Shown here: positions 3,136 to 32,932 of the stretch, in pieces
How positions within the stretch are numbered: position 1 is the first letter of the stretch
Layout of the letters: each line of letters opens with the position of its first letter
IMG/VR virus record: IMGVR_UViG_2571042390_000001
Direction: 5' to 3' (one strand)
From: a virus
Lineage: Duplodnaviria; Heunggongvirae; Uroviricota; Caudoviricetes
Length of the DNA: 64,000 bases
Notes under the pieces: model-generated
What the model was told of the DNA's origin: nothing
Seen by the model: the letters and a program-made list of their open reading frames with translations, nothing else
Databases searched by the model: none
Program-made: the position numbers and the translations under genes

Positions 3136-3462
3136 ATGTTTGCAGATTATGAAAATCTGGCTGTAGTAGTCATAACATCCCTACTAAGTGGAACCGGCGT
3201 ATTCCTTCTCGGAGTTAGAGACGGGCGCATTTCTGCGTCCCTGCTCAATCTTGCGAGTGAATTGTTTACTGCGGTAACAGCCGGGCTTGCGGGGTATGGG
3301 GTGGCGGTTAGCCAAGAATGGCCTGAAGGTATCATTTTCTGCGTTGTTCTGATTGCCAGTAACAACGGTAGTGAAATTTTACAGGGCTTGAAGTCCAGAG
3401 CTAGTTACGTCTTGAATCTCTTAAGCGTAATAGCGAATGGGGGAAAAGGTGGAGAGAAATAA
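3136..3462 (+). CDS. Holin-like membrane protein (LydA-like by size and position)
   Basis: 108 aa with three hydrophobic segments; first gene of a plus-strand operon after the invertase. Confidence 0.45.
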   Translation: MFADYENLAVVVITSLLSGTGVFLLGVRDGRISASLLNLASELFTAVTAGLAGYGVAVSQEWPEGIIFCVVLIASNNGSEILQGLKSRASYVLNLLSVIANGGKGGEK

Positions 3463-3908
3463 TGGGTAACTTTGGAAATTATTTCATTTTTATCATGGCA
3501 TTTGTTGCCATCATTGACCGTTTCATTTTTCGTCGCAAGAGTGTTGAGATTTTGAGTATTGGTGACGCTGTAGTGAAAGAATCCGCTATAGCATTTCCTG
3601 TTTCGCTACGTGTTAAGCGAAGCTGGGTCAGCAATGCTCAAATCGAATATTGGTTGCAAGACCTGAAAAATCCATCTGTGGTTATTTCAGGGAAAACGCG
3701 ACCAGTTGACGCCTCAAAACGCGGTGAGAGAGAAGAGTATTTGCTCATCGATACGAAATATCTTGAGCCAACGAAGTGGGATCTGAAAGTCACATTGACT
3801 AACGGTAACTGCCGACTGAATCCGCTTTATCGCATTTTCCCTATCAATGACTGCATAGAGCGCCAGTTTACGATCGAAAAGCGTAAAGGAGACTGGGATG
3901 TCAAATAA
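3462..3908 (+). CDS. Membrane-anchored protein (LydB/antiholin-like by position)
   Basis: 148 aa, N-terminal transmembrane segment; start overlaps upstream stop. Confidence 0.3.
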   Translation: MGNFGNYFIFIMAFVAIIDRFIFRRKSVEILSIGDAVVKESAIAFPVSLRVKRSWVSNAQIEYWLQDLKNPSVVISGKTRPVDASKRGEREEYLLIDTKYLEPTKWDLKVTLTNGNCRLNPLYRIFPINDCIERQFTIEKRKGDWDVK

Positions 3909-17087: not shown

Positions 17088-20000
17088 TTGGACAAACTAC
17101 TTCATTCAATCAGTGAAGCCTCCAGCTTAGGCGAACTGATTGAAATTGTTAGTCGGTTGCATAAATTACGTGCTGTTGCGACCTTTGGCGTCAGGAAAGC
17201 CGATGGCGTCAGTATTCAGAAAACACGCCGGGCAGCAAACAATGCCGCAGTAAATCTTCTTAATTCCCTTCCGCCCGGCTTCGATGGGGCGAAATTAACT
17301 GACGAACAACGTCAGATTCTTGCTGGGTATACCGGTGAAGGCGGCCTGACAGATGGTGAGGGCAGCCAATACGAATACTACACGCCACAGTTTATGGCTG
17401 AAGGTATATGGGAGCTGTTTGCTGACTACGGTATTGATGGCGGTCACGTACTGGAACCATCAGCTGGCACGGGTATTTTCCAGGAGACAAAACGGCAGGG
17501 AATGATAATGACCAGCGCCGAGCTGTCTCCGATCTCCGGTCGAATCAACCAGCTGTTGCACCCGGAAGACGATGTGAACATTGGGGCGTTTGAGGCTCTG
17601 GCGGCGAAAGACGCAATGTATGACCACGCTGTTGGTAACGTACCGTTTGGCGAAGGCCGTTCCGGCGTTGCAGGGCTTGATCCGGCATATGCAAACGAGA
17701 AGAACGTTGGCAATTACTTTGTGCTGCGCACGATCGACAAGGTTAAACCTGGTGGGCTTATCGTATTGGTGGTGCCGAATGGCATGACTGATGGTACGAA
17801 ATACAAAAAATTGCGCGATAAAGTCAGCCGTAAAGCGGAATTTTTGGGCGCGCATCGTATGCCTTCCGGTACGTTCAGTGAATCAGGTACAGATACCGTG
17901 GTGGACGTATGGGTATTGCGTAAACACCCGGAAGCCTTCCTGGAGATGATCCCCGATACGGATGATTCGACGCTCAAATCGGCAAACGTCCTTTGGGTTA
18001 CCTTCCTCAAAGGGAAATGGTTTACAACCGAAGGGAAGCGATTTGTTTACGGCGACATGGAACGTACCAGCTTCCGCAATACCCTAGTGGTGAAAAAAGA
18101 CGGTCGTGTATCCAATGAGTCGATGAAAACCGCGCTATCTCGTCGCTTTGATAGTCGCATCAATTGGGATTTGCTCGGCGTAACTACTCAGGCATGGCAG
18201 GGCGCGAAAGTGGGCGATAAACGCCTTGTAGGCGGTATCTGGCATGAGTTTGATGGTCTGAAATGGGTTCAGGACACGACAACCAAATCCTCCGCGCTTG
18301 ATGTAAGTCGATATGGTGTTTCGACGTTTGGCGATCTGCAGATCGCGTTCCAGTCAACAAACGGGATTCTGGCTTTGTCATGGGACCAGATATCGGCGAT
18401 CGCGTCCGACTATCCATCGGTTGTCAGTGATGAAGTGGCAGCAATGATTCGCTTTGCTGGCAAGCAGCGAGAAAAAGACAGGGAGCGCGTTATGCGCGGT
18501 GCACTGATAGGTCAGTTGATCAACAAGGCACTTGATTTGCGTAACCTGGGGGTGAACGTTGATGACAAACTGGCAGATGCATCCCGCTTGGCGGCAGCAG
18601 AAGTTGCGAAGTATGGACCACCGCACGCGATTAAGCTGAATGGGCTTGCTGAAGCTGGCGCTAAAAACTGGATGACGTTCACTGGCAATGTGAAACAGGA
18701 TGGTTCCACTTCTGACCTTCTGGCAGGGCGACTTGATGTAACGGATGGTGCTGCCGGTATTGACTTTACGCGTCCTGAACAAGTGATAGCACATCTTTTT
18801 AGTGATGTAGCCCTTAATCCTATAACGCTGGGCGACTTTCGTGAGGCGTTTGCTGGTGAACTGCCAGAGGACGACGACGCGGTCCTTGAATACCTGGCGA
18901 AATTTGATGATATCGCTATTGATGGGTATGGCTGTCTGCTGCCGATGGACCGCGCCACCAGCGGCGATGTTGCAACCAAAACAGCACTGCTGGTGGGCTG
19001 GCGTGATGCGTCAACAGGTGAGCAGAAAGCGAACTTTGAGCGTCAGTTGGCGAAAATCGAAGAGAAACGCATTTTCACGCCACTAAATAAAGTCACCGTT
19101 AATCTGAATGCCCGCTGGCTGGATCGCCGCTTGATAAAAGAGTTCCTGGCAGAGCAGGGCTATGACGAGTTTAAGTACACTGAACCTGATCTGAAGGTCG
19201 TCGATGGCATTCTGGTATCTCCGGACGATTACGAAGGTAAGGACGGGGTATTTACCGGCTATCAGCTACGAACCGTAAACGGCAAAAACGGGAATGAGTT
19301 CAAGAAGGCCAACAATAAAGACGGCTTCCTGAACCAGTTAGAAAACTACCTGAACGGTGTTAAACCGCGTGGGCAGAACGCTAACGAGTACCTGGATAAA
19401 ATTGCTCAACTGGAAGTTAGCTTTAACGACTGGTTACGCACCCACCCGCAGGCGGATCAGATAGCCCGTGACTATAACGACGCATTCAATGGTTTCATTC
19501 CGTTCACACATTCTGACGCACCGCTTGGCCTGGAAGGGATTAGTGGAAAGCGCATTCCTCTGACTTATCAGAATGAAGAAGTTCGGCGCTTGTCAGAAGA
19601 TGGGCGTGGCATCATGGGATTTGGTACCGGGCTGGGTAAAACCACGACCGCGCTTGCGCTTGAGGCGTATAACTTCGAAACAGGTCGCACTAAACGCACG
19701 TGTATTGTTGTTCCGAAGGCGGTTTATCAGAACTGGTATCACGAGGCACAGAGTTTCTACAGTGCTGATGCCTTCGCCAATATGATGTTTATCGGTTTGG
19801 ATGAAGTTCGTGATGACAGCGGAAATATTCTGACCGCGCCGGTGCTTGATGAAAATGGCGAACCACGCCTCGACAGTAACGGGCAGCCTCTTACCAGAAA
19901 TGTTGTGAAAGAGTCCTCCAGCGCCGTTATCGTTCAGCGTATGAACATGATCCCGTCGTCAAATTGGCGAACGGTCATCATGACAAAAGAACAATTCGCG

Positions 20001-23960: not shown

Positions 23961-24395
23961 ATGACGACATTAATTGACACTGTAAAACCGACGGAATCCT
24001 ACCTTGAGGACATTTTGCCGCAGGCGCTCAATGGCAGGAGTGAAGAGGCGTTTCTGGATGCATATCTGAATGGCATGGTGGAAAGGCTGAAACGAGATCC
24101 ACAGCTTTATCACCTTTATGGGCCGTGGTGGCCTGCGCTTAAAACGTTATTGCTGGAGCGCGGCGACATATCATTTGGACAAGTTGTAGATAGTGATGTG
24201 GCAGAGATCTACAAAATGAGTCGCCCGGCGCTTACGGTTTTGGCTGGGCATCTGTATTCGAGCGATCGCCTGGAAAATGACGCGGTATACAATCCTGTTC
24301 ATGCTCTGGAAGTCGCACCTTATGCCGATGATACAGAGCCATACGTGTACACAAGTTACGACGAGTCTATAGAGAAATATCGAATTATGGGGTAG
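23961..24395 (+). CDS. Hypothetical protein
   Basis: 144 aa, follows darB-like gene with RBS aaggag. Confidence 0.5.
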   Translation: MTTLIDTVKPTESYLEDILPQALNGRSEEAFLDAYLNGMVERLKRDPQLYHLYGPWWPALKTLLLERGDISFGQVVDSDVAEIYKMSRPALTVLAGHLYSSDRLENDAVYNPVHALEVAPYADDTEPYVYTSYDESIEKYRIMG

Positions 24396-24397
24396 CC

Positions 24398-24658
24398 ATG
24401 CGAAAGAATCGTAGGTTTACGGTCGAAGACCTAAAGGAATATTCCATATCGAAGGGGTATATCCTTGAGTTCCACCGATACAAGAAGGTTTTTACGCTGC
24501 GAAAAGCAGAAAACCCTGCGAACTGGAGCTGGATATACTTTCCTCACACCGATGATAAGTTGGTAGAACTTGTTGATGATTTAACCTATGAAGGTTGGTT
24601 GATCGCAATCGACAAGACAATCAAAGAATTATCCGAACAGGATAAAATAACCCTTTAA
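24398..24658 (+). CDS. Hypothetical protein
   Basis: 86 aa, 2 bp after upstream stop. Confidence 0.5.
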   Translation: MRKNRRFTVEDLKEYSISKGYILEFHRYKKVFTLRKAENPANWSWIYFPHTDDKLVELVDDLTYEGWLIAIDKTIKELSEQDKITL

Positions 24659-24794
24659 AAATAACAGGTTGGGTAAATGCCATGCGATTTACCCTCCTTG
24701 TTGATTAAGGTCACTCTTTACTCTAAAAGCAAATCCGACCTGTTGCATATAGACCATCCTTGAGTAGTATCTCTCTTGTTTTACAAATCTAACG

Positions 24795-25289
24795 TTGTTG
24801 TTATTATTTCGCATATTTACTATCAATGGGTGTGTTAGAAAAATAGCGCGAAAGAGAAGGCGTCGCAGTGAATATTCTGAAACATCCCCACATGCCGCAG
24901 CTCTTAGAGAACTGGAGAAAAACCCAGATCTAATCAAAAGGAACCATGAGCATTACGAGCAGGTTCGCGTCCTGGACTGGATGTATCGCAATATGCGTTA
25001 TGTGTATGAGCATACTCACGCCACTCCAAACGGTGGCCTGCGAGGCATAAGGACGGCAATAAAAATGGTGGCAGAGGGCCAAAAGAAGGGATATCCCGAT
25101 CTTTCTATAGACCTTGCTTGTGGGGGATACCACGGAATGCGCATTGAGATGAAACATGGGAGAAATCGCCTGACTCCCGAACAACTCGTCTGGATGACTC
25201 GCCTCACAGAAGCCGGTTACTACTGCTTTGAGGCGCGCAGTGCCGCTGAAGCCATAAAAGCTATCACGGAGTATGTTTGTCTTGATTAA
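24795..25289 (+). CDS. VRR-NUC domain nuclease-like protein; start codon uncertain
   Basis: Segments EHYEQVRVLDWM, KGYPDLSIDLACGGYHGMRIEMKHG and LTPEQLVWMTRL fit the PD-(D/E)xK VRR-NUC pattern; the operator motif lies inside the annotated 5' end. Confidence 0.55.
   Translation: MLLLFRIFTINGCVRKIARKRRRRSEYSETSPHAAALRELEKNPDLIKRNHEHYEQVRVLDWMYRNMRYVYEHTHATPNGGLRGIRTAIKMVAEGQKKGYPDLSIDLACGGYHGMRIEMKHGRNRLTPEQLVWMTRLTEAGYYCFEARSAAEAIKAITEYVCLD
24831..24846. promoter_or_regulatory. Operator-like motif
   Basis: tgtgttagaaaaatag in an AT-rich stretch upstream of the VRR-NUC domain. Confidence 0.45.
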
Positions 25290-25303
25290 ACGGAGAAATC
25301 GTT

Positions 25304-25504
25304 TTGCGGTTACTTAACGTGGCAGAACTTATCCCTGCAGGAACTAATGCTATCGCTCGTCGTCGCTCATGGCAGCAGGCTCTATGTATTGAGATCTCGA
25401 AACGTATCAATGGAAGTTTTGAAGCTCGCAATATTGTTACTGGCGATAAGGTTCACATAACCCCGGAAAGTGCAAGCGCTGATGATTGGGAGTTTGTACA
25501 TTGA
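25304..25504 (+). CDS. Small DUF2829-like protein
   Basis: 66 aa; AIARRRSW and DDWEFV motifs; TTG start after RBS ggaga. Confidence 0.45.
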   Translation: MRLLNVAELIPAGTNAIARRRSWQQALCIEISKRINGSFEARNIVTGDKVHITPESASADDWEFVH

Positions 25505-25800
25505 GCAAAAAATATTATGTGAGTCTGGCGTTCGCTGACGATGCGGGGAGGACGCGGAGTATCACGTTGAGCACACCGGTTAAGGCTGTGACAGCGCCGT
25601 TAATCCGTGAAGCTCTCAGAGAGCTGGAATTGGGGGAAAACTCGGCACTGTTGTCGGTTAGTTGGTTCGGGAAAATGTCAGAGAAACAATACGTGGATGG
25701 AGTTACCCCAATAACAGTAATGAGGCTACTTTCATTGCTGCAATGGGCCATCGTACCTGTATTTATCGCGTATCTTATTTATCAGGCTGCAACACAGTAA
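25501..25800 (+). CDS. Small protein with C-terminal transmembrane helix
   Basis: About 99 aa from TTG overlapping upstream stop; C-terminus VMRLLSLLQWAIVPVFIAYLIY. Confidence 0.4.
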   Translation: MSKKYYVSLAFADDAGRTRSITLSTPVKAVTAPLIREALRELELGENSALLSVSWFGKMSEKQYVDGVTPITVMRLLSLLQWAIVPVFIAYLIYQAATQ

Positions 25801-25807
25801 TTGCATA

Positions 25808-25835
25808 AAAACCCGCCAATTAGCGGGTTTTTTGT
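25808..25835 (+). terminator. Intrinsic terminator
   Basis: acccgc-caatta-gcgggt followed by TTTTTT. Confidence 0.7.
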
Positions 25836-25872
25836 TTATTGCATCTTTCGATACTGTCATCAAACTAATAAA

Positions 25873-25890
25873 ATATGTTAGAAAAATAAT
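25873..25890. promoter_or_regulatory. Operator-like motif
   Basis: atatgttagaaaaataat, 25 bp upstream of the 402-aa gene. Confidence 0.5.
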
Positions 25891-25913
25891 TTAACAAAGT
25901 AACGGGAATAGCA

Positions 25914-27122
25914 ATGAGTCAACACACTGATACTTCTAATCTGGAAATTATCTCGACAGCAATTGAAACGCTGCGCACACAAATCGCTCTTATACAGAAA
26001 CGGAATCCGGGTGATGACCTGTCAAAGCGACTGCACGAGAGTGTCATTGCCACTACAGATAACCTGGTGGCGGAAATCAACAAGCTGCTTGATGATGGGG
26101 CAGTTGATTACAATAAGCTGGTGGATCAGTTTGAGGAATACCAACAAGCAGTTAATGATGGCTTGATCCGTTTTTCACAAGTCACAGGCGTATCAGCGAC
26201 AGTTGAAAGCCTGGGTGATGCAGTTAATCAATTTGCCGCGAATATGCGTAATGAGATCGGCAATCTGGAAGCGCGTCTTGAACAGGCAAATACACTGCGT
26301 AAATCTGCCGAAGCCGATTTGAACCGTTACAAAAAAGACTATCCGCCAAGCCTGACAAAGCGGCTGGATGTTGCGGAGAAGGATAACCGCACGCTGAAAA
26401 GAGAGCGCCGGGAACTAAAAGAGCGTTTAACCAAGCTCAATCAGCAATGCATTGATTATCAAGGCGAAGGCGTCACACTGCGTAAAAAGTTGGCTACAGC
26501 GCAGAGCATTATCGAAACATTAAAGCGAGAGTGCTCACAGCTTGGTCACGATCTGAACCGTGCTTGTGGCATGGGACAAAGACCAGAGACATTTCCACTT
26601 ATGTATGATGGAAGGGATGCCATTGCCTACATCCATGAGTATCCGCACGGCCTGGTTGCGGAAACTGGGCAGCGTGGCGAAGCACTGCTGACGGCTAATT
26701 ACCATCAACAAATCAGAACCAATCGCCTGTTAACGATGGATGTGATCCCATCGGTATGGGGAACGCCGCTTTACTATCGCCTGCCGGGCTTCGAAAAGGA
26801 CTGGAATACCGACATAGACGAATGTCTCGCAGATAAAATTATGGCGTATCTGGAGACGGATTTTCCGCGCTTATATCGCCGGATTATGGACTCTAAGGAT
26901 GCGCCAATCGATGAATTAAAAATGCGTCCGGAGACGCTGGAGGCAATCAAGCAGACGGAGTTTGATACTGTATTCAGTGTGGCCTGCATTCCAAGCTGTT
27001 TCCATGAAAGCATCCCGTTCATGCAAGGAGATCGTCGTCAGGAAATCATTGACGCTTGCCGGGTATGGGCGAACGAATGGGATAAGAAGAATGGGGGTGT
27101 AGAAGATCTTTATGGGAAATAA
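25914..27122 (+). CDS. Hypothetical protein, N-terminal coiled coil and C-terminal globular domain
   Basis: 402 aa; flanked by operator-like motifs on both sides. Confidence 0.6.
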   Translation: MSQHTDTSNLEIISTAIETLRTQIALIQKRNPGDDLSKRLHESVIATTDNLVAEINKLLDDGAVDYNKLVDQFEEYQQAVNDGLIRFSQVTGVSATVESLGDAVNQFAANMRNEIGNLEARLEQANTLRKSAEADLNRYKKDYPPSLTKRLDVAEKDNRTLKRERRELKERLTKLNQQCIDYQGEGVTLRKKLATAQSIIETLKRECSQLGHDLNRACGMGQRPETFPLMYDGRDAIAYIHEYPHGLVAETGQRGEALLTANYHQQIRTNRLLTMDVIPSVWGTPLYYRLPGFEKDWNTDIDECLADKIMAYLETDFPRLYRRIMDSKDAPIDELKMRPETLEAIKQTEFDTVFSVACIPSCFHESIPFMQGDRRQEIIDACRVWANEWDKKNGGVEDLYGK

Positions 27123-27140
27123 TGTGTTAGAAATCTAAAA
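27122..27140. promoter_or_regulatory. Operator-like motif
   Basis: atgtgttagaaatctaaaa, overlapping the stop codon of the 402-aa gene. Confidence 0.45.
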
Positions 27141-27276
27141 TCACAATTCGAATGTATTGATTGTGAAGATAACTTAACATAGAATTTTCCTTGCTGGTGG
27201 GCGGTACCCACGTTTCGCTTGCTGGGCTTGATAGTCACTTATTGGTTATTGTTCGCCCACCAGCATTTAACAAATT

Positions 27277-27296
27277 AAAGTGTTAGAAATGTATAG
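27277..27296. promoter_or_regulatory. Operator-like motif
   Basis: aaagtgttagaaatgtatag. Confidence 0.45.
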
Positions 27297-27872
27297 TAAT
27301 GCAAGAGCACGCTTTGGCACCGTGCAGGCCAAAGTTCAGCAGGTTTAGTGCGGAAAGTGGTTTCAGAGAGAGCACTTTGCGGAGTAAACGACAATACATG
27401 TTGAGCCACGGAAGGTCTTTTTAAGGTGTTCATTGATGATGGTCCGGCAGAGAGTAACGGTACATGCTGCATCTAATCATCAATGCACATCTTCAACATT
27501 AAGGAGGCATAGGGATTTTTGTGGCGGTTACCTTTTGCCCTGAGTCTCCTTAATGTTGCGGTAATGCACCTATGCGGATGTGGCCTTGCATTGTGTCTTG
27601 AAAGAATGGGGTAAGGCCGGGGATATCCCCAGGGGGAGGCACCCCCGCTGCAACGAACAGCCACAGACGGCAGTCGAGTGATGGAAACGTGTAAAGACTT
27701 TAAACCTCGTTACGGCTGGCGTGGCAAACGCGACAACCGAGACAGAGCGGTGACGGGCGGAGAGAGTGCCGCATCAAGAAAGAAGCCGACTTGTGATCCC
27801 TTTCAGCGGGCATTTGAAAGTGAATCCAGCTCAGGCAGTCGGCTTCTTTCTTGTGTGAGATGTAGCGTATTT

Positions 27873-27896
27873 GCCCATCTTCGGGTGGGCTTTTTT
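27873..27896 (+). terminator. Intrinsic terminator inside the ORF-poor region
   Basis: gcccatc-ttcg-ggtgggc followed by TTTTTT; preceded by a 16-bp-stem hairpin at 27767-27846. Confidence 0.55.
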
Positions 27897-28357
27897 AGGG
27901 TTTTCGTCATGGTTAGCGACTTTGCGGCGGTTTAGAAACTGACCATTAAAGTAAATGCAAACGATGATCTGATGATGGTAGCGGCCTAAGAAGCCAGACG
28001 CCACGGGGTATGAGTCGTCCCCCGTCAAAAAAATCGACCGCAGAGTGTCCCCGTCTGTGTATTAGGGAACGGGGAGGCATAACAGGCAAGGGCGCTGGTG
28101 TGATTAACCAGATGAATGAGAAGGGTCAGGTCTTTCTGGTCAGCGCCCTTACCTGTTGCGTCCTTCCCGCGTAACAGCCATTGCTTAATGGCATCCTGGG
28201 AGAACTTCTTGTAACGGGTATATCCCGTCATGCTGAAGGCGCTAATCACGCTGGAAGCCAGGGTTGTGCATCCCCTGTTACCGAATTGCAGCCAGGGCGC
28301 GGTGCGCCGAAAAGCATACGGAGGTGGAAGCCCTCGCCGGAGACGTACCCGGCAAGT

Positions 28358-28432
28358 GATGGTGTAGCTCAGCGGTAGAGCAGTTGGCTGTTAACCAACT
28401 GGTCGGTGGTTCGAATCCACCCACCATCGCCA
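28358..28432 (+). tRNA. tRNA-Asn (anticodon GTT)
   Basis: 75 nt with CCA; acceptor gatggtg/caccatc, T-arm ggtgg-ttcgaat-ccacc, anticodon loop ctGTTaa. Confidence 0.85.
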
Positions 28433-28437
28433 ATTTA

Positions 28438-28524
28438 GGGGAGTTAGTCCGTAGGGGTAGCGGGGTAGACTGTAAATCTACTGTCATTGCGACTCGGGTG
28501 GTTCGACTCCATCACTCCCCACCA
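28438..28524 (+). tRNA. tRNA-Tyr (anticodon GTA), type II with long variable arm
   Basis: 87 nt with CCA; acceptor ggggagt/actcccc, anticodon arm gtaga-ctGTAaa-tctac, variable arm gtcattgcgac, T-loop ttcgact. Confidence 0.7.
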
Positions 28525-28528
28525 AATT

Positions 28529-28604
28529 GCCGGTTTAGCTCAGTTGGTAGAGCAGTCGCTTTGTAAGCGAATGGTCAGCGGTTCGATCCCGTTAACCGGC
28601 ACCA
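28529..28604 (+). tRNA. tRNA-Thr (anticodon TGT)
   Basis: 76 nt with CCA; acceptor gccggtt/aaccggc, anticodon loop ttTGTaa, T-loop ttcgatc. Confidence 0.85.
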
Positions 28605-29058
28605 ACACAACAGGTAAGAGCATTTGTAGAGTTCGACTCTCTACCGTGGGCTTTTTCCCGCGATGCGAGCCATAAATGCTCTTACCGTTGTGATGAAGTG
28701 CAGCTCTTTGAAGCAACCAGAAGATAAGCATCTGGCTTCACAACATAAACCGCAGGAACGACCAATAAACGGTAGTCCGTATGGAGAACACCCCGTTGAG
28801 GAAGAGGTCTGGCCGGAACCGTAACCGGCACTACAACGTTGAGAACACTGGCGTAACGGGGTCATATCCCAATCTACGAATAAATGTTGCGTTGCAGCGT
28901 GACAACCAGTGTTCTCAACATTGTGGTGAATGCGCAGGCTGATGCGCGAAAGACATTGCAGCTATTGCGGAAAAGAGCTGTTCGGCGGGGCAATTAAACG
29001 CCCGTGAGAGTCTGAAATAACCGCAAGCCGGAGATCAGCACCGGTCGCCACAATAACG

Positions 29059-29145
29059 GGAGAGTAGGGAGCATGGTGCTCAAGCGGTCTTGAAAACCGT
29101 CCCATTGCGCAAGCGATGATGGTTCGATTCCATTACTCTCCGCCA
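29059..29145 (+). tRNA. tRNA-Ser (anticodon TGA), type II
   Basis: 87 nt with CCA; acceptor ggagagt/actctcc, anticodon arm gcggt-ctTGAaa-accgt, T-loop ttcgatt. Confidence 0.7.
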
Positions 29146-29436
29146 GTGCAACATTAAGGGTATTTGGCTAATTAAGCGAATGCCGGAAGCAGAACCGGAT
29201 CACCAAATGCGTACAGGCGTCATCGCCGCCCAGTCAGCCAAATGCTCTTACCATTGCGGTGAATGCGGCTAAGCGCACGCGGAACAGTTAAAACAGTAAA
29301 GGTGGTCTTTTTACTGGCGTAACGAGAATCCATAAGTGATCCGGCGTTAATTGTTAACTGGTTAACGTCACCGGGAGGCGCCCGGCACCGCAACCTAACA
29401 GCAATGGCGTTTTGTCTTAAAAGGTGGCTGCAAGTG

Positions 29437-29565
29437 ATGGATTTTTGGGCGTTTGCCGATAAAAACCCGGAGTGGACATTATTGTTTCTGCTGGTGGTTG
29501 CATACGGGGTAGAGCAAGCGGCAAAAGCCTTACGCGGTTCTGGCAAAAAGCGTAAGCGTAATTAA
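29437..29565 (+). CDS. Possible small membrane peptide (42 aa)
   Basis: RBS aaggtgg then ATG; MDFWAFADKNPEWTLLFLLVVAYGVEQAAKALRGSGKKRKRN; hydrophobic core with basic tail; sits between tRNA genes. Confidence 0.25.
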   Translation: MDFWAFADKNPEWTLLFLLVVAYGVEQAAKALRGSGKKRKRN

Positions 29566-29574
29566 CAGTAATCT

Positions 29575-29650
29575 GGCCCTTTAGCTCAGTGGTTAGAGCG
29601 GGCGACTCATAATCGCACGGTCACCGGTTCAAGTCCGGTAGGGGCCACCA
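29575..29650 (+). tRNA. tRNA with CAT anticodon (Met or lysidine-modified Ile)
   Basis: 76 nt with CCA; acceptor ggccctt/aggggcc, anticodon loop ctCATaa, T-arm accgg-ttcaagt-ccggt. Confidence 0.85.
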
Positions 29651-30102
29651 CATTTGGTTGTAACACGGCGTATGGCACATGCGTCGTTAGCGGTCTGGTG
29701 TAGCTGTTAGGTACCTTTTACTAACACTGCATGGGCACACCAGGTAGCCGGAATGTGCAAGCCCCGTTCATAGCGTCGGACTGCGGATTCACCATCCTGG
29801 CGATTCGGTGTGACAGCCGGAAGAGCACGGCGCACAACAGGAAAAGGCGTTTAATTAGCGTGAGCGCCGTTTCCGTTGTGGTAATTGCGGCTATGCGCTC
29901 GTGACGAAGCCATTTTCATTCACTACGTTCTGATAAGTGACGTCGCCAGGAGTGGCTAACCTGGCAGGTGGAGGCACCACCGCCACAACTCCTTTCAATT
30001 CATCATATAGCCGCTCAGGCTGTACCCCTTAATTAATACGAAGTTACGACATCACTACCGGTACTTCCGGGGGATAGTCGCGCGTGTAAAAAAGGAAACG
30101 TT

Positions 30103-30678
30103 ATGTTAATGGCGAACGATAACGCATATACAGAAGAAGATCTCATTTTGAGTGACTTCATAGGGAAGCGTGAACGCTGGACCCAAAAGCGAGAGGAAAT
30201 TTACGCCTCATTAGTTCGCAAAGGCGTCAATATCGAAACCGCACAGAGCGGCGATATGACAGTGGTAAGCGTTGGATTGCACGGTGTAAGCGTGTCAGCA
30301 ATCAATCATGAGCCATACGTTGCGTTATCCGAGTCAATGGTAAGGTTAGTTAAGTTCCTGAAATACACAGAAGCGAATAATGTAATCATTGGCAAAAAGA
30401 ATATCCCTTTTTCCTCGGCTTTTTACTGGATGATGAAAGGGCTTGATGCCCGGCGGACATCATGGCCCAAAGGGAGCTATATATCGATGTTCCGTGGCAG
30501 TATTGGCAGCAAAGAAAAGCTCTTCGAATTCTTGCCGGAAGAGGCATTCGATATTGTGGAAGGGTGCGATGTGATGGTGATGCCTCGCCTGGTAATGATG
30601 AATGGGGATTTACAGGCGCAGACAGACTGGTTTGCAACTGGTGTGGATATTATCGCGACTGACTGGGAGGCTTTCTGA
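30103..30678 (+). CDS. Hypothetical protein with C-terminal DUF2829-like domain
   Basis: 191 aa; C-terminal part FSSAFYWMMKGLDARRTSWPKG ... QTDWFATGVDIIATDWEAF. Confidence 0.55.
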   Translation: MLMANDNAYTEEDLILSDFIGKRERWTQKREEIYASLVRKGVNIETAQSGDMTVVSVGLHGVSVSAINHEPYVALSESMVRLVKFLKYTEANNVIIGKKNIPFSSAFYWMMKGLDARRTSWPKGSYISMFRGSIGSKEKLFEFLPEEAFDIVEGCDVMVMPRLVMMNGDLQAQTDWFATGVDIIATDWEAF

Positions 30679-31070
30679 TGTACGGGACTACCAAATTAAG
30701 CACTCAACAGGCCACCAATATGGAGTGGTCTATCGCTAACTGTAAGATCGAGTCATGCAATGCCACGCGTACTGATGTGGGCCATAAAAGCACTATAACA
30801 GGCTATCTAGTAATGACCACCAGGGGGATAAGGGTTAGATTTCGCTGGAAAGCAGAGCAAGTAACCCCATTCAGAGAGCCATCAATGCCGCTGCAGGTTG
30901 AGCAGGATTATCTATGTTTACCAGAAATAGATGGAGGAATGCTGGTGGAGTCTGATGGTAGTAAGGCTGATTTTGAAGCCAATTTGAAGCTGGCACAGGC
31001 CGTAATCAATAGTTATCGCGGACAGTGGATCGCAAAAGTGAAACATGTTGTTCGTTTGTCTCGCTGGTAG
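30678..31070 (+). CDS. Hypothetical protein
   Basis: 130 aa; ATGA overlap with upstream gene. Confidence 0.5.
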   Translation: MYGTTKLSTQQATNMEWSIANCKIESCNATRTDVGHKSTITGYLVMTTRGIRVRFRWKAEQVTPFREPSMPLQVEQDYLCLPEIDGGMLVESDGSKADFEANLKLAQAVINSYRGQWIAKVKHVVRLSRW

Positions 31071-31087
31071 CATTAGATATTTAGTAT

Positions 31088-31104
31088 TAATTTTCTAATA
31101 CATT
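31088..31104. promoter_or_regulatory. Operator-like motif (variant TTTCTAATA)
   Basis: aattttctaatacattc, upstream of the gene preceding pacA. Confidence 0.4.
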
Positions 31105-31178
31105 CATCTTTTTACCAGTCTATACAGTTTTAACATTCTCATTATCATCCCCTCGGTCATTTCCTGCCCGGGGGATTA

Positions 31179-31571
31179 ATGGAACAAATCAGCAGCGCAG
31201 AAATTGCGGATATCATGATCAGGGCTGACTGCTATCTGACAGTCACTGAAATTACCACTCTCGCCAAAGAAAAATACCCTCATCTCCATGTTTCACGAGT
31301 AAGTGTAACTAACATCATTCGTCATTTTGTTCGTTCAAGCAGGGCAATCTGTGAGCTTGATGATCGTGTTTACCCACGAAAATACTGGTTGCATGGCCTG
31401 AACGGATATCAGTTCAAGGTGCGTGGGCGAACCCCTGAATATGGCAGTTTACTGGTTAAAAACTGTAGCAGGAAATCAGTCGAACAGGCGCGAAAAGAGC
31501 AACGAGAGCTGGTGGACATGGCGAATAAGCTGTGGAATGCCGCCGTTAAAAAGCGTGGTGTTGCTTTATGA
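31179..31571 (+). CDS. Hypothetical protein in the position P1 uses for the late-promoter activator Lpa
   Basis: 130 aa; operator-like motif upstream; immediately precedes pacA; homology not verified. Confidence 0.4.
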   Translation: MEQISSAEIADIMIRADCYLTVTEITTLAKEKYPHLHVSRVSVTNIIRHFVRSSRAICELDDRVYPRKYWLHGLNGYQFKVRGRTPEYGSLLVKNCSRKSVEQARKEQRELVDMANKLWNAAVKKRGVAL

Positions 31572-32932
31572 GTCTGGTTAATTGGGAGGAGCACCGCGCC
31601 CGCTTTATAGCGTTGCGTGAAGAAAAAGGGATCACTGTAAAGGAATACTGTGAGGAGCATGGCCTTAGCTTCAATACAGCCAGAAAGCATCTCAATATGA
31701 AAAAAAATGAGGTGCGGTCGCAGGTAAAGACAACAAAAAAAAGCACCAAATCACCTGAAAAAAAACGGGCGGGAAGAGCAACAAAAAAGCTGGAAGAGGG
31801 TGCAGAAAAAACAAAATTTACAGAAATTGACAATTCGCAGGGCGCAGGTTCTTTCCGAAGTATGCCGAGAAAGAAAACTTCGGATCATGAAAATAATTCA
31901 AATAATAACAATGAGATAAAAGAATCTGTCAGGAGATCATTGCGCGAAAAAATGGCGAAAATGATCCCCGAAGAAGATAAAAACGCCCCAAAAATTGAGG
32001 GATCTTCTGCAATGATCCCTGACGGTGCTGTGCAGCGTGCCACATTGCCAACTACGAATGTGGCTCGCGATATGATGAAGAACGGCGCAGAAGAACACCT
32101 GCGGTTAGCAATTCAAATGGCGCAAGAGCGCGCACTTCAGTATCAAAGCATTGTTGATCAGGAGGCCGAACGTCTACAGGCGGAAATAGACGCCTTGGGC
32201 GATAAAGAGCCAGAAGGAATGCACCCTGGGCAGCGCCTTCTCGGTCTAATCAGTGACGCGGCCTACTACATGAATGATTTTATCAGTAGGTTGGCAGCTA
32301 TATATCAGTCCGAACAAAAGCTGCGACAGGGGGATGAAAAGCTTCGTCAGAGCGCTCGCCAGCAAGCATTCAAAGAGGCTGAGGCCAGAGAAAAACTCGA
32401 ATTAGCACGCCTACAGGCCGAACAGCGTGGCAAAGAGATTGAATATCGCATTGGCGCTGACGCACGCGCAGCCAGAGTTATCGCCGCCGCTATACGTATG
32501 CGTGAGCGCGAGGAACTGGATGATATCGGTGTTGCTGAATACATCGAGCGCCAGGGTGTCAGCGTCCCGGCTATCCTCGCGGCGCGCGCGGCGAAAGCTA
32601 TCACTCTTCTCGAACCACCTGTTTCTGACGTCAATGATGTTGATGATGAACAGCTGGACAAAGAGGCAAGGGAGTTTGCAACGCTTCAGGCTAACCATCC
32701 GCAATGGCTGGCAGAGCGCCGGGCGGATGTGGCAACCATTGTTGAAGAATTGGGGTGCGGAGATTACGACCGCAATGGCGAGCGTAAAGCTGGAGAATTC
32801 GAGGCCAACGACGAAGAGCTGGATATTGACCCTTCGGCAACGGCTGAAATTTACGGTGATTATGATGCATCTGATGCAGGGTATGACGCCGGAGATGATG
32901 ATATCGCGATAGAACCGCCGGAGGATGATTAA
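31568..32932 (+). CDS. pacA: Terminase small subunit, PacA-like
   Basis: 454 aa; N-terminus MSLVNWEEHRARFIALREEKGITVKEYCEEHGLSFNTARKHL resembles my recollection of P1 PacA; acidic C-terminus; overlaps the large subunit gene. Confidence 0.65.
   Translation: MSLVNWEEHRARFIALREEKGITVKEYCEEHGLSFNTARKHLNMKKNEVRSQVKTTKKSTKSPEKKRAGRATKKLEEGAEKTKFTEIDNSQGAGSFRSMPRKKTSDHENNSNNNNEIKESVRRSLREKMAKMIPEEDKNAPKIEGSSAMIPDGAVQRATLPTTNVARDMMKNGAEEHLRLAIQMAQERALQYQSIVDQEAERLQAEIDALGDKEPEGMHPGQRLLGLISDAAYYMNDFISRLAAIYQSEQKLRQGDEKLRQSARQQAFKEAEAREKLELARLQAEQRGKEIEYRIGADARAARVIAAAIRMREREELDDIGVAEYIERQGVSVPAILAARAAKAITLLEPPVSDVNDVDDEQLDKEAREFATLQANHPQWLAERRADVATIVEELGCGDYDRNGERKAGEFEANDEELDIDPSATAEIYGDYDASDAGYDAGDDDIAIEPPEDD

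Follow-up and report, generated by a model that had tools for sequence, protein, structure and literature searches.

A conserved tmRNA-like module with a putative tag template in the predicted leader of a phage tRNA operon

Location and composition of a gene-poor region upstream of phage tRNA genes

Why does a phage keep 1.2 kb of DNA without a convincing gene directly in front of its tRNA genes? We addressed this question for positions 27142-28357 of a 64,000-nt stretch of viral DNA (IMG/VR record IMGVR_UViG_2571042390_000001; this whole stretch is called the window below). The window is a D6-like relative of phage P1, being 98.8% identical to phage D6 over positions 27100-28400. The region lies between a pmgS-like gene and tRNA-Asn, the first of five tRNA genes on the same strand. 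Positions 27870-28357 are about 92% identical to P1 68855-69390, i.e. to the leader of the P1 ban operon, which runs from the C1 operator Obanab to trnA. The features that we recognized are the following.

27117..27137 (+), operator-like motif 1, core TGTTAGAAA at 27125-27133, overlapping the last codons and stop of the pmgS-like gene
27157..27185 (+), predicted sigma-70 promoter, TTGATT-17 nt-TAGAAT, with a predicted transcription start near 27192
27192..27265 (+), stem-loop with 12-bp arms TGCTGGTGGGCG / CGCCCACCAGCA, an inverted pair of Chi sites (27193-27200 on +, 27257-27264 on -)
27273..27293 (+), operator-like motif 2, core at 27281-27289, overlapping a weaker promoter candidate, TTAACA-19 nt-TATAGT (27267-27297)
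27296..27665 (+), first part of the lineage-specific structured leader RNA, with hairpin I1 (about 27429-27486), hairpin I2 (27490-27562, sequestering AAGGAGG), a hairpin at 27583-27617, GGGGAUAUCCCC (27619-27630) and GGGGGAGGCACCCCC (27632-27646)
27519..27614 (+), candidate 31-codon mini-ORF (TTG start; MWRLPFALSLLNVAVMHLCGCGLALCLERMG), probably not a conserved gene
27666..27771 (+), linker segment found in D6-like sequences only
27772..27855 (+), long hairpin D, a perfect 17-bp outer stem (27775-27791 / 27837-27853) plus an inner helix
27873..27896 (+), intrinsic terminator, a 7-bp stem with 5 G-C pairs, a UUCG loop and U6
27898..28046 (+), tmRNA-like module: 5' part 27898-27956; resume codon GCA at 27957; tag frame 27957-27986 (ANDDLMMVAA); stop TAA at 27987-27989 in a hairpin loop (27983-27985/27993-27995 and 27976-27978/28001-28003); pseudoknot stem 1 at 28004-28008/28020-28024; pseudoknot stem 2 at 28014-28017/28035-28038
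28076..28162 (+), hairpin I4 (arms 28081-28097 / 28141-28157), one copy of a repeated tRNA-cassette-like long hairpin unit
28163..28357 (+), 3' part of the P1-family leader, a variable stretch (28163-28215) followed by a near-invariant one (28216-28357) ending at tRNA-Asn

An earlier note, made from the sequence alone, had described the region as ORF-poor and had listed an operator-like motif, an inverted repeat, a palindrome, two hairpins and a terminator. All of these are present in the sequence, so its observation is confirmed. The inverted repeat has arms at 27494-27514 / 27538-27558 (21 nt, 86% complementary) with a perfect 13-bp core CAACATTAAGGAG/CTCCTTAATGTTG; the palindrome GGGGATATCCCC is at 27619-27630; the terminator-like GCCCATCTTCGGGTGGGC is followed by T6; the last hairpin, given a 14-bp stem in the note, has 17-nt arms that are 94% complementary; and the operator-like motif AAGTGTTAGAAAT is at 27278-27290, with a twin at 27122-27134. 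Only the long hairpin was misplaced, its coordinates (27767-27846) being about 8 nt off and its stem 17 bp rather than 16 bp. The note missed the most informative element, the tmRNA-like module, which lies between the terminator and the last hairpin.

The region has no conserved ORF

None of the ORFs of 30 aa or more matched a Pfam or NCBIfam family at the family cut-off, and only two Pfam hits, far below threshold, were obtained. The 85-aa ORF at 27678 carries an in-frame TGA in six relatives, and the linker segment that it overlaps is absent from the Shigella dysenteriae and E. fergusonii relatives. The 74-aa minus-strand ORF (28025-28249) is cut to 14-21 aa in 39 of 59 relatives. In the 3' part of the leader, indels are not multiples of three and ORFs are truncated in relatives, indicating that it is noncoding.

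The candidate mini-ORF at 27519-27614 looked more promising. A strong AAGGAGG lies 11 nt upstream of it, and an in-frame start with a hydrophobic N-terminus is kept in four divergent loop variants. As the predicted product of 31-33 aa resembles a single transmembrane helix, and as the Shine-Dalgarno sequence pairs within a hairpin that covaries, we considered that 27296-27665 could be a type-I-toxin-like cassette in which a small hydrophobic peptide would be kept silent by hairpin I2. However, the ORF is broken in E. fergusonii (a frameshift with no start), loses its N-terminus through a 41-bp loop inversion in three records, and carries a +1 G, i.e. a frameshift, or a stop loss in others. It was absent from the protein collection searched, tblastn found no relatives elsewhere, and no antisense promoter was found in the promoter scans. 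The toxin reading is therefore unlikely.

The 41-bp inversion was found in 1 of 77 plasmids plus two metagenomic or viral contigs. Because the flip is rare and a 41-bp segment with 13-bp arms is too short for known invertases, we rejected a programmed inversion switch and read it as template switching at a quasi-palindrome.

A predicted promoter between two operator-like motifs

The promoter at 27157-27185 was the only promoter-like site found by a consensus scan of 26900-29800. Both hexamers and the 17-nt spacing are kept in all 20 relatives compared, while the spacer sequence diverges. A second scan found the weaker candidate that overlaps motif 2; the Shigella relative has a perfect TATAAT at this place. 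Neither scan found a promoter-like site in 28163-28357, and the P1 record annotates none between Pban and trnA.

The 13-mer ATGTGTTAGAAAT of motif 1 occurs 3 times in the window against 0.46 expected, and the 9-mer core TGTTAGAAA 11 times against 0.57 expected (about 20-fold enrichment), always in an A/T-rich asymmetric context like that of a P1 C1 operator, and it lies at promoters. The P1 17-bp operator consensus ATTGCTCTAATAAATTT is absent. The assignment of these motifs as operators is thus putative, resting on enrichment and on analogy with P1. Motif 2 is a direct repeat of motif 1, 156 bp downstream. The distance from motif 1 to the -35 hexamer is the same in all 20 relatives, whereas the distance between the two motifs varies (150, 156, 161 and 163 bp), so that there is no helical phasing; repressor looping was rejected on this basis.

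In the stem-loop that follows the promoter, the 12-bp arms are 100% complementary. The core arms TGCTGGTGG / CCCACCAG are invariant in relatives, while the interior varies in sequence and length. Chi occurs 38 times in the window against 1.8 expected.

Evidence that the hairpins are selected at the RNA level

The RNA minimum free energy z-score was -6.4 for 27190-27900 on the + strand and -3.2 for 27897-28357, indicating that the structure exceeds chance. Conservation of the hairpins in related genomes had been set beforehand as a test of the note's proposal, and three of them were found to keep pairing through compensatory and G-U-type changes. For hairpins I1 and I2, the alignment fold predicted 43 pairs, 3 of them with changes on both sides and many with G-U to A-U or G-C switches, which would be A-C mismatches on the other strand and only make sense for + strand RNA. 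For hairpin D, the fold has 30 pairs, is 98% paired, and shows changes on both sides in 9 pairs; no shuffle of 500 reached the observed values for four of the five measures, and slid controls paired only 42-47%. The stem of hairpin I4 is kept in 59 relatives while its loop is highly variable. The same position in other phages holds ACAGGTAAGAGCATT...AGTGCTCTTTCCGTTGTGG units, some with a T-arm-like hairpin inside. There is too little variation to test structure in 28163-28357.

The first part of the leader (27296-27665) occurs only on D6-like plasmids (98 of 5426 E. coli genomes, with no chromosomal copy). A species-representative genome collection contained none of the D6-specific part and only two Escherichia contigs with the P1-type leader. 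The paper on D6-like plasmids does not discuss this region.

The note's alternative of an origin-like element is not supported and we consider it very unlikely. The many inverted repeats, and the 41-bp inversion, which shows that the DNA can form hairpins, would fit a DNA-level element. However, the region has only short two-copy direct repeats and no iterons, no DnaA box, and no AT-rich block or skew switch (GC content 0.40-0.56), and the G-U-type changes in the stems fit only one RNA strand.

Comparison with the P1 ban leader

The terminator hairpin is conserved in all 59 P1-like and D6-like relatives, and homology to P1 starts exactly there. The two leaders occupy the same position, share the terminator and 490 nt up to tRNA-Asn, and have a promoter under a repressor operator (putative in the window). 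In P1 (operator Obanab/Op72, promoters P1ban and P2ban), the operators differ in sequence and overlap, instead of lying 156 bp apart. The genes downstream also differ, those in the window being tciA/B, lpa and pacA/B, with no ban. The P1 record states that the operator 'controls expression of ban'; since ban lies 2.6 kb downstream, beyond the same terminator, read-through happens in P1.

Just upstream of the shared terminator, P1 has a 'dicF-like region', where the window has 0.6 kb of other hairpins ending with hairpin D and a short linker. The P1 segment is homologous to the roughly 100 nt immediately 5' of a copy of DicF, an sRNA of the dicB operon, in a lambdoid prophage. It is absent from the window, and Rfam scans reported no DicF match at E up to 1 in window positions 24000-32000 or in the P1 locus, and none in the prophage stretch searched. 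More generally, nothing in 27142-28357 reached an Rfam threshold. Weak microRNA-type hits on hairpin I2 only reflect its being a long hairpin, and a suspected kinship between the tail of I2 and the STnc100-like element was not confirmed.

A strong predicted terminator lies between the only promoter detected in the consensus scan and all downstream genes, and two adjacent long hairpins lie near the 5' end. This raised the possibility that the leader acts in cis on RNA polymerase, like the put RNAs of phage HK022, to let it read through into the tRNA and late-activator genes. We consider this improbable, as P1 shares the terminator but has none of these hairpins, as the hairpins are about twice the size of put stems, and as nothing links them to the polymerase.

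A tmRNA-like module shared by unrelated phages

The unexpected part of the region is a module of roughly 150 nt, which we found neither annotated nor described. BLAST found it in 318 phage records, comprising Ackermannviridae, N4-like Gamaleyavirus, roughly 47-kb siphoviruses, HK620 and lambdoid prophages. All 136 unique copies encode exactly 10 codons followed by a stop, with TAA or TAG in all 30 unique tag sequences and a second in-frame stop in 21 copies. There are 17 different tags of the form AN[DE]..[LM].[AV]A, close to E. coli ANDENYALAA. Most copies were retrieved with a pattern that fixes TAAATGCAAACGA, so that their first three codons are conserved by construction, but the six BLAST-derived lineages are free of this bias. 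Codon differences are mostly nonsynonymous (475 synonymous against 1744 nonsynonymous), indicating that the peptide is constrained in length, stop codon and end composition rather than in sequence. As in tmRNA, whose tag frame starts at a resume codon (usually GCA, Ala) without a start codon or Shine-Dalgarno sequence, the frame begins at a resume codon, GCA, preceded by U-5/A-4 (AUAAAU-GCA, compared with AUAGUC-GCA in E. coli). The flanking arms AGUGCUCUUUCC (upstream) and GGUAAGAGCAUU (downstream) may close the module.

Further evidence came from structure. With our covariance model, the window copy scored 87.5 bits and exactly one copy per source was found in 96 of 96 sources. The structure was 93.4% paired against 82.3% in shuffles (0 of 500), with 122 compensatory cells against 38.9. 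Pseudoknot stem 2 was not in the model, yet 3 of its 4 pairs covary.

Rfam models (tmRNA_permuted RF04321, alpha, beta and standard tmRNA RF00023, clan CL00001) hit the tag region, in register, in six lineages, but always below the gathering scores. The best scores were 33.4 bits (E 9.5e-4) against a threshold of 47 for tmRNA_permuted and 24.7 bits (E 4.4e-4) against 50 for alpha_tmRNA; the window itself scored 23.8 bits (E 0.097). Conversely, the best hit of our phage-only model in K-12 ssrA was the true tag region, in register, although with only 9.5 bits. Plain pairwise alignment to K-12 ssrA was no better than with shuffles.

No tRNA-like domain was found, and the module can therefore not be filed as a tmRNA. 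ARAGORN at default settings called no tmRNA in the window or in any of the 136 copies; relaxed settings gave calls that are not trustworthy. A T-loop motif scan and a search for a 7-bp acceptor partner next to a T-arm-like hairpin gave no consistent site.

Of 126 copies, 62 have a same-strand tRNA gene downstream and almost none have one upstream. In HK620 and in a prophage, the module and the same hairpin units lie between Q and the holin gene, in late-operon leaders (PR'-qut-terminator), between a promoter and a terminator or just after a terminator, at the place where lambdoid phages carry tRNA genes. Those leaders are controlled by the Q antiterminator at a constitutive promoter rather than by a repressor operator, and in HK620 the module precedes the terminator instead of following it.

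Interpretation

The best explanation is that the stretch is the noncoding, + strand leader of an early operon of a D6-like, P1-family plasmid prophage, and we estimate the probability of the whole reading given here at about 0.55. In this view, the promoter, which lies between two copies of a putative D6-type repressor-operator motif, would be silent in the lysogen and fire on induction, as inferred from the homologous P1 leader. The first 0.7 kb of transcript, a chain of long hairpins, would end at the terminator, which predicts two products, a discrete structured RNA and a read-through fraction. As we found no internal promoter, expression of the module, the tRNA-cassette-like hairpin and the tRNA array would depend on this read-through. 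The mechanism that we prefer is that the module is cut out of the tRNA precursor together with the tRNAs and serves as the coding piece of a trans-translation RNA, ribosomes rescued in the infected cell then adding a phage-specified tag, with the acceptor function provided by a partner that we could not identify.

We are confident of the identity of leader, promoter and putative operators, and nearly as confident that the module is a real, selected, tmRNA-like element, but its action as a tag template in trans-translation is only tentative. What the analysis establishes is the presence, homology, conservation and covariation of the sequence features; transcription, repressor binding, read-through and processing, as well as any alanine charging, SmpB binding or tagging of stalled nascent chains, are inferred. 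The earlier note's interpretation, structured noncoding RNAs or a processing leader for the tRNA operon, is partly supported: it pointed the right way, but was generic and did not recognize the P1-family leader, the module, or the last hairpin as a repeated unit.

Two other views of the module appear unlikely to us, though neither is negligible. First, it could be a decoy that titrates SmpB, ribosomal protein S1 or rescued ribosomes and so damps host trans-translation. The absence of a detectable tRNA-like domain and the conservation of the resume-codon context that SmpB reads would fit, and a partial tmRNA that inhibits the host tmRNA has a precedent in mycobacteriophage DS6A (PMC4131195, PMC11915505), of which the module would be the mirror image. 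A decoy has, however, no need for an open 10-codon frame, a conserved stop codon, a frequent second stop or a hydrophobic ..AA/..VA end, all of which are kept in 136 copies even though the codons differ. Second, it could be an ssrA fragment captured long ago and now serving only in the structure or processing of tRNA precursors, for example as an RNase P or RNase E entry site or a stabilizer. Its position 5' of tRNA genes in half of the copies, its embedding among tRNA-cassette-like hairpin units and its weak similarity to ssrA are in favor of this. Yet a relic frame should decay, whereas no copy has a frameshift or an early or late stop across families as distant as Ackermannviridae, N4-like phages and P1, and half of the copies have no tRNA within 1.1 kb.

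Among known systems, the module is closest to the mRNA-like domain of tmRNA, including the coding piece of the two-piece (permuted) tmRNAs of alpha-proteobacteria and cyanobacteria. It shares with it the resume codon and its context, a 10-codon tag beginning with AN(D/E) and ending in small hydrophobic residues plus Ala, a UAA stop, often doubled, in a hairpin loop, and an H-type pseudoknot directly after it. It differs in its size, in its location inside phage operon leaders, in lacking pseudoknot 1, and in that no acceptor stem with G3-U70, T-arm or CCA end could be found. Full tmRNAs are encoded by cluster C mycobacteriophages and Bacillus phage G, while the mini-tmRNA of DS6A keeps the tRNA-like half and lacks a tag frame; neither survey (PMC4131195, PMC11915505) lists enterobacterial phages among those with ssrA. 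The T4 tRNA gene cluster also contains stable RNAs of unknown function (species 1 and 2), structured non-tRNA RNAs that are cotranscribed and coprocessed with phage tRNAs; no tag frame is known for them.

The D6-specific hairpin array is of more local interest, as a swappable leader cassette in front of a shared terminator. The module itself is missed by ARAGORN and by Rfam thresholds and is left unannotated or covered by hypothetical ORFs, so that a dedicated model would improve phage annotation; P1 and D6 being genetically tractable, its role can be tested directly. The furthest-reaching possibility, which is doubtful but not excluded, is that many enterobacterial phages (including P1, D6, HK620, lambdoid prophages, Vi1-like Ackermannviridae and N4-like phages) carry a previously unrecognized, minimal tmRNA-like RNA without its own tRNA-like domain. 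This RNA would work with a separate acceptor partner, or with the host machinery, to reprogram ribosome rescue, and stalled nascent chains would receive a phage-specified tag such as ANDDLMMVAA, ANDDVVLMAA or ANEEMYLAVA. It would be the first natural relative of tmRNA reduced to the coding half, complementing the tRNA half of DS6A, and it raises the question of how a template without an acceptor reaches the ribosome. Trans-translation is the main ribosome-rescue system of bacteria, and several phages (a lambda-P22 hybrid, Mu) depend on host tmRNA. A conserved tag-template RNA in 318 phage records, model phages P1 and HK620 among them, would mean that phages bring their own input to this pathway, one that could change the degradation tag, compete with the host tmRNA, or restore rescue when the host or a defense system shuts it down.

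Genomic context and features of the region

Positions 27100-28400 of the window are 98.8% identical to Escherichia phage D6, a P1-related plasmid prophage, and 100% identical to an E. coli plasmid. The region of interest lies between the stop codon of a pmgS-like gene (27122) and tRNA-Asn (28358), the first of five same-strand tRNA genes. In D6, the same transcription unit continues through tciA/tciB, two small genes, the late-promoter activator lpa and the terminase genes. From 27870 onward, the sequence is about 92% identical to the phage P1 leader that runs from the C1-controlled operator/promoter of the ban operon to trnA, in which the P1 record annotates only a 'dicF-like region'. The features discussed below are the following.

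27157-27185: sigma-70 promoter, TTGATT-17-TAGAAT
27193-27200 (+) and 27257-27264 (-): inverted pair of Chi sites forming the arms of a stem
27296-27855 (+): D6-specific structured RNA
27494-27514/27538-27558: inverted repeat (hairpin I2)
27619-27630: palindrome GGGGATATCCCC
27775-27791/27837-27853: perfect 17-bp stem (hairpin D)
27873-27896: canonical terminator
27929-28046: tmRNA-like element, as delimited by our covariance model
28081-28157: hairpin with 17-nt arms

The earlier note had listed an operator-like motif, an inverted repeat, a palindrome, two long hairpins and a terminator in an ORF-poor stretch, and every one of these features was indeed found in the sequence; only the coordinates of the 17-bp stem, given as a 16-bp stem, were about 8 nt off. 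The folding energy was far below that of shuffled sequences (z -6.4 for 27190-27900 and z -3.2 for 27897-28357). No ORF was credible, as none reached a protein-family cut-off, an 85-aa ORF contained a TGA in six relatives, and a 74-aa minus-strand ORF was truncated in most relatives. The note's interpretation of the stretch as structured non-coding RNA or a processing leader for the tRNA operon was generic but on the right track, and is partly supported, while its alternative, an origin-like element, was rejected.

In 28358-28604, compared with D6 and two plasmids (loci L005 and L006), the first tRNA of the array is swapped between relatives, being Asn(GUU) here and Arg(UCU) in others. The window also has an extra tRNA-Tyr between Asn and Thr that D6 lacks, and its tRNA-Asn differs from that of D6 and P1 at paired positions. 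Downstream of the array, a 191-aa ORF (30103-30678) is named 'MW1434 family type I TA system toxin' in RefSeq copies of related plasmids, which is an odd name for a protein of this size.

Promoter and operator-like motifs

The 9-mer TGTTAGAAA occurs 11 times in the window against 0.57 expected, always in an A/T-rich asymmetric context resembling a P1 C1 operator. Two copies, 156 bp apart, flank the only good sigma-70 promoter of the region. In 20 distinct relatives, the two hexamers of this promoter and their spacing were kept while the spacer diverged. A weaker promoter may overlap the second copy. The distance between the two motifs was not phased, as it ranged from 150 to 163 bp across relatives. 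The nine further copies (13732, 14931, 24833, 25876, 35525, 36935, 51244, 54096 and 54754) probably mark the other repressor-controlled promoters of this phage. Repression in the lysogen and firing on induction are inferred from the homologous P1 arrangement.

Between the two motifs, right after the promoter, lies a stem whose invariant arms are the inverted pair of Chi sites. Chi (GCTGGTGG) is about 20-fold enriched in the whole window (38 occurrences in 64 kb against 1.8 expected, mostly on the + strand), and another close inverted pair lies at 18955/18989. The conservation of the stem may therefore reflect selection on DNA rather than on RNA.

A D6-specific structured RNA on the + strand

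The segment 27296-27855 was found only on D6-like plasmids (98 of 5426 complete E. coli genomes, with no chromosomal copy) and is left unannotated by RefSeq. Comparison of relatives that are 70-99% identical showed a modular build, in which three hairpins are supported by evolution. Hairpin D has 30 pairs, is 98% paired, and has 9 pairs changed on both sides; none of 500 shuffles reached the observed values for four of the five measures, and slid controls paired 42-47%. Hairpins I1 and I2 have together 43 pairs, with 3 changed on both sides and many G-U to A-U or G-C switches. Those switches would be A-C mismatches on the other strand, and the + strand also folds 43 kcal/mol better. This indicated that the selected molecule is + strand RNA.

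Hairpin I2 buries an AAGGAGG that precedes a 31-codon hydrophobic ORF, which raised the possibility of a type-I-toxin-like mini-ORF. The frame survives in four divergent loop variants, but it is destroyed in E. fergusonii and by a 41-bp loop inversion in three records, and is altered at its end in others; we consider it an unlikely gene. In these three independent records (locus L017, plasmid NZ_CP058619.1 and locus L134), the inner 41 bp of the hairpin (27507-27547) is found as its exact reverse complement, in one of them with an extra 10-nt deletion. This is a hairpin-loop inversion polymorphism between 13-bp inverted repeats, and it removes the start of the mini-ORF.

All P1-like and D6-like relatives share the terminator, while what precedes it differs by lineage: the 'dicF-like' segment in P1, hairpin D in the window, and both in some plasmids. 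The P1 segment (3437-3538 of the P1 locus, L001) is homologous to the roughly 100 nt immediately 5' of a DicF-like sRNA in the dicB operon of a lambdoid prophage (2460-2570 of locus L114), not to DicF itself, and the Rfam scan of the P1 locus reported no DicF match. A sub-threshold but repeated match to Rfam STnc100 (39.1 bits against a gathering score of 47) was found upstream of the tciB-like small ORF in the window (29255-29392), upstream of tciA in P1 (L001 4726-4845), and between DicF and dicB, just before dicB, in the lambdoid prophage (L114 2608-2815). The P1 operator controls ban, which lies 2.6 kb beyond the terminator, and read-through must therefore occur. No promoter was found between the terminator and the tRNAs. 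A put-like antitermination RNA is a rival, though unlikely, reading of the leader.

A tmRNA-like element shared by unrelated phages

The first roughly 115 nt after the terminator were unexpectedly found to be conserved, at 73-90% identity, in 318 of 50,697 phage records from unrelated groups. These comprise Ackermannviridae of about 157 kb, N4-like Gamaleyavirus, siphoviruses of about 47 kb, HK620, where the element lies between qut and the late terminator, and a lambdoid prophage, where it lies between Q and the holin gene. The stretch contains GCA AAC GAT GAT CTG ATG ATG GTA GCG GCC TAA, which reads ANDDLMMVAA-stop, while the E. coli tmRNA tag is ANDENYALAA. The six BLAST-derived lineages read ANDDLMLMAA, ANDDVVLMAA, ANEEMYLAVA and ANDTEFLAVA. 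Among 136 unique copies collected from viral contigs, every one has exactly ten codons followed by a stop, which is TAA or TAG in all 30 unique tag sequences. There are 17 different tags, and 21 copies carry a second in-frame stop.

Upstream of the tag, AUAAAU-GCA keeps the U-5/A-4 of E. coli AUAGUC-GCA. The stop codon lies in a hairpin loop and is followed by an H-type pseudoknot, the two stems of which exist in several mutually compensating versions (for example CCGA:UCGG, GUCG:CGAC and CCAG:CUGG). A covariance model built from 20 copies found exactly one copy in each of 96 sources, the window copy scoring 87.5 bits. On the resulting alignment, the structure was 93.4% paired against 82.3% in shuffles (0 of 500), with 122 compensatory cells against 38.9, and the pseudoknot stem that was not part of the model covaried at 3 of 4 pairs.

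Further evidence for a relation to tmRNA was that Rfam tmRNA families hit the tag region in six lineages, though below threshold (E down to 4e-4). The best hit of the phage-only model in K-12 ssrA was the real tag region, in register, but this hit was weak (9.5 bits), and plain alignment to ssrA was not significant. In contrast, no tRNA-like domain was found: ARAGORN at default settings called no tmRNA, T-loop-like hairpins occurred in only some lineages, and a search for an acceptor partner gave nothing consistent. In the N4-like phage Bp4 (locus L143), the element is bracketed by two odd tRNA-like calls, 'tRNA-Ala(cgc)' 110 nt upstream (510-581) and 'tRNA-Cys(aca)' 95 nt downstream (873-951), both of which score poorly as tRNAs and could be candidate acceptor pieces. 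With no tRNA-like domain found, the element fails a defining test of tmRNA membership and we do not file it as a tmRNA; it resembles the coding half of one. It might instead be a decoy for SmpB or ribosomes, or a processing relic, though we consider both of these unlikely.

In other phages the element is flanked by long hairpin units (ACAGGTAAGAGCATT...AGTGCTCTTTCCGTTGTGG) that look like degenerate tRNA cassettes, and the hairpin at 28081-28157 is such a unit. The spacers of the tRNA array (window 28604-28700 and 29146-29262) are built from the same long units as found in the lambdoid late-operon leader (ACAGGTAAGAGCATT ... AATGCTCTTACCGTTGTG; locus L141 2416-2486 and 2836-2930). Some of them enclose a T-arm-like hairpin such as GTAGAG-TTCGACT-CTCTAC, and they look like degenerate tRNA cassettes with paired leader and trailer. 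Hairpins D and I2 look like diverged copies of such units, but this is inferred from motif resemblance only. Half of all copies of the tmRNA-like element have a same-strand tRNA gene downstream, at a median of 404 nt from the resume codon.

Two exhaustive surveys of tmRNA list phage tmRNAs only in mycobacteriophages, Bacillus phage G and the tRNA-half-only DS6A form (PMC4131195, PMC11915505). Our literature searches, which did not extend to the text of the D6 and P1 genome papers, found no description of a tmRNA-like element in P1, D6, HK620 or the other groups.

Taken together, the sequence comparisons establish the anatomy of the region, its conservation, the covariation of its stems and the constancy of the tag frame, whereas control by the repressor, partial termination, co-processing with the tRNAs and use of the element as a tag template are inferred. 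The main content of the finding is a widespread phage element that appears to be undescribed and that is directly testable in P1.
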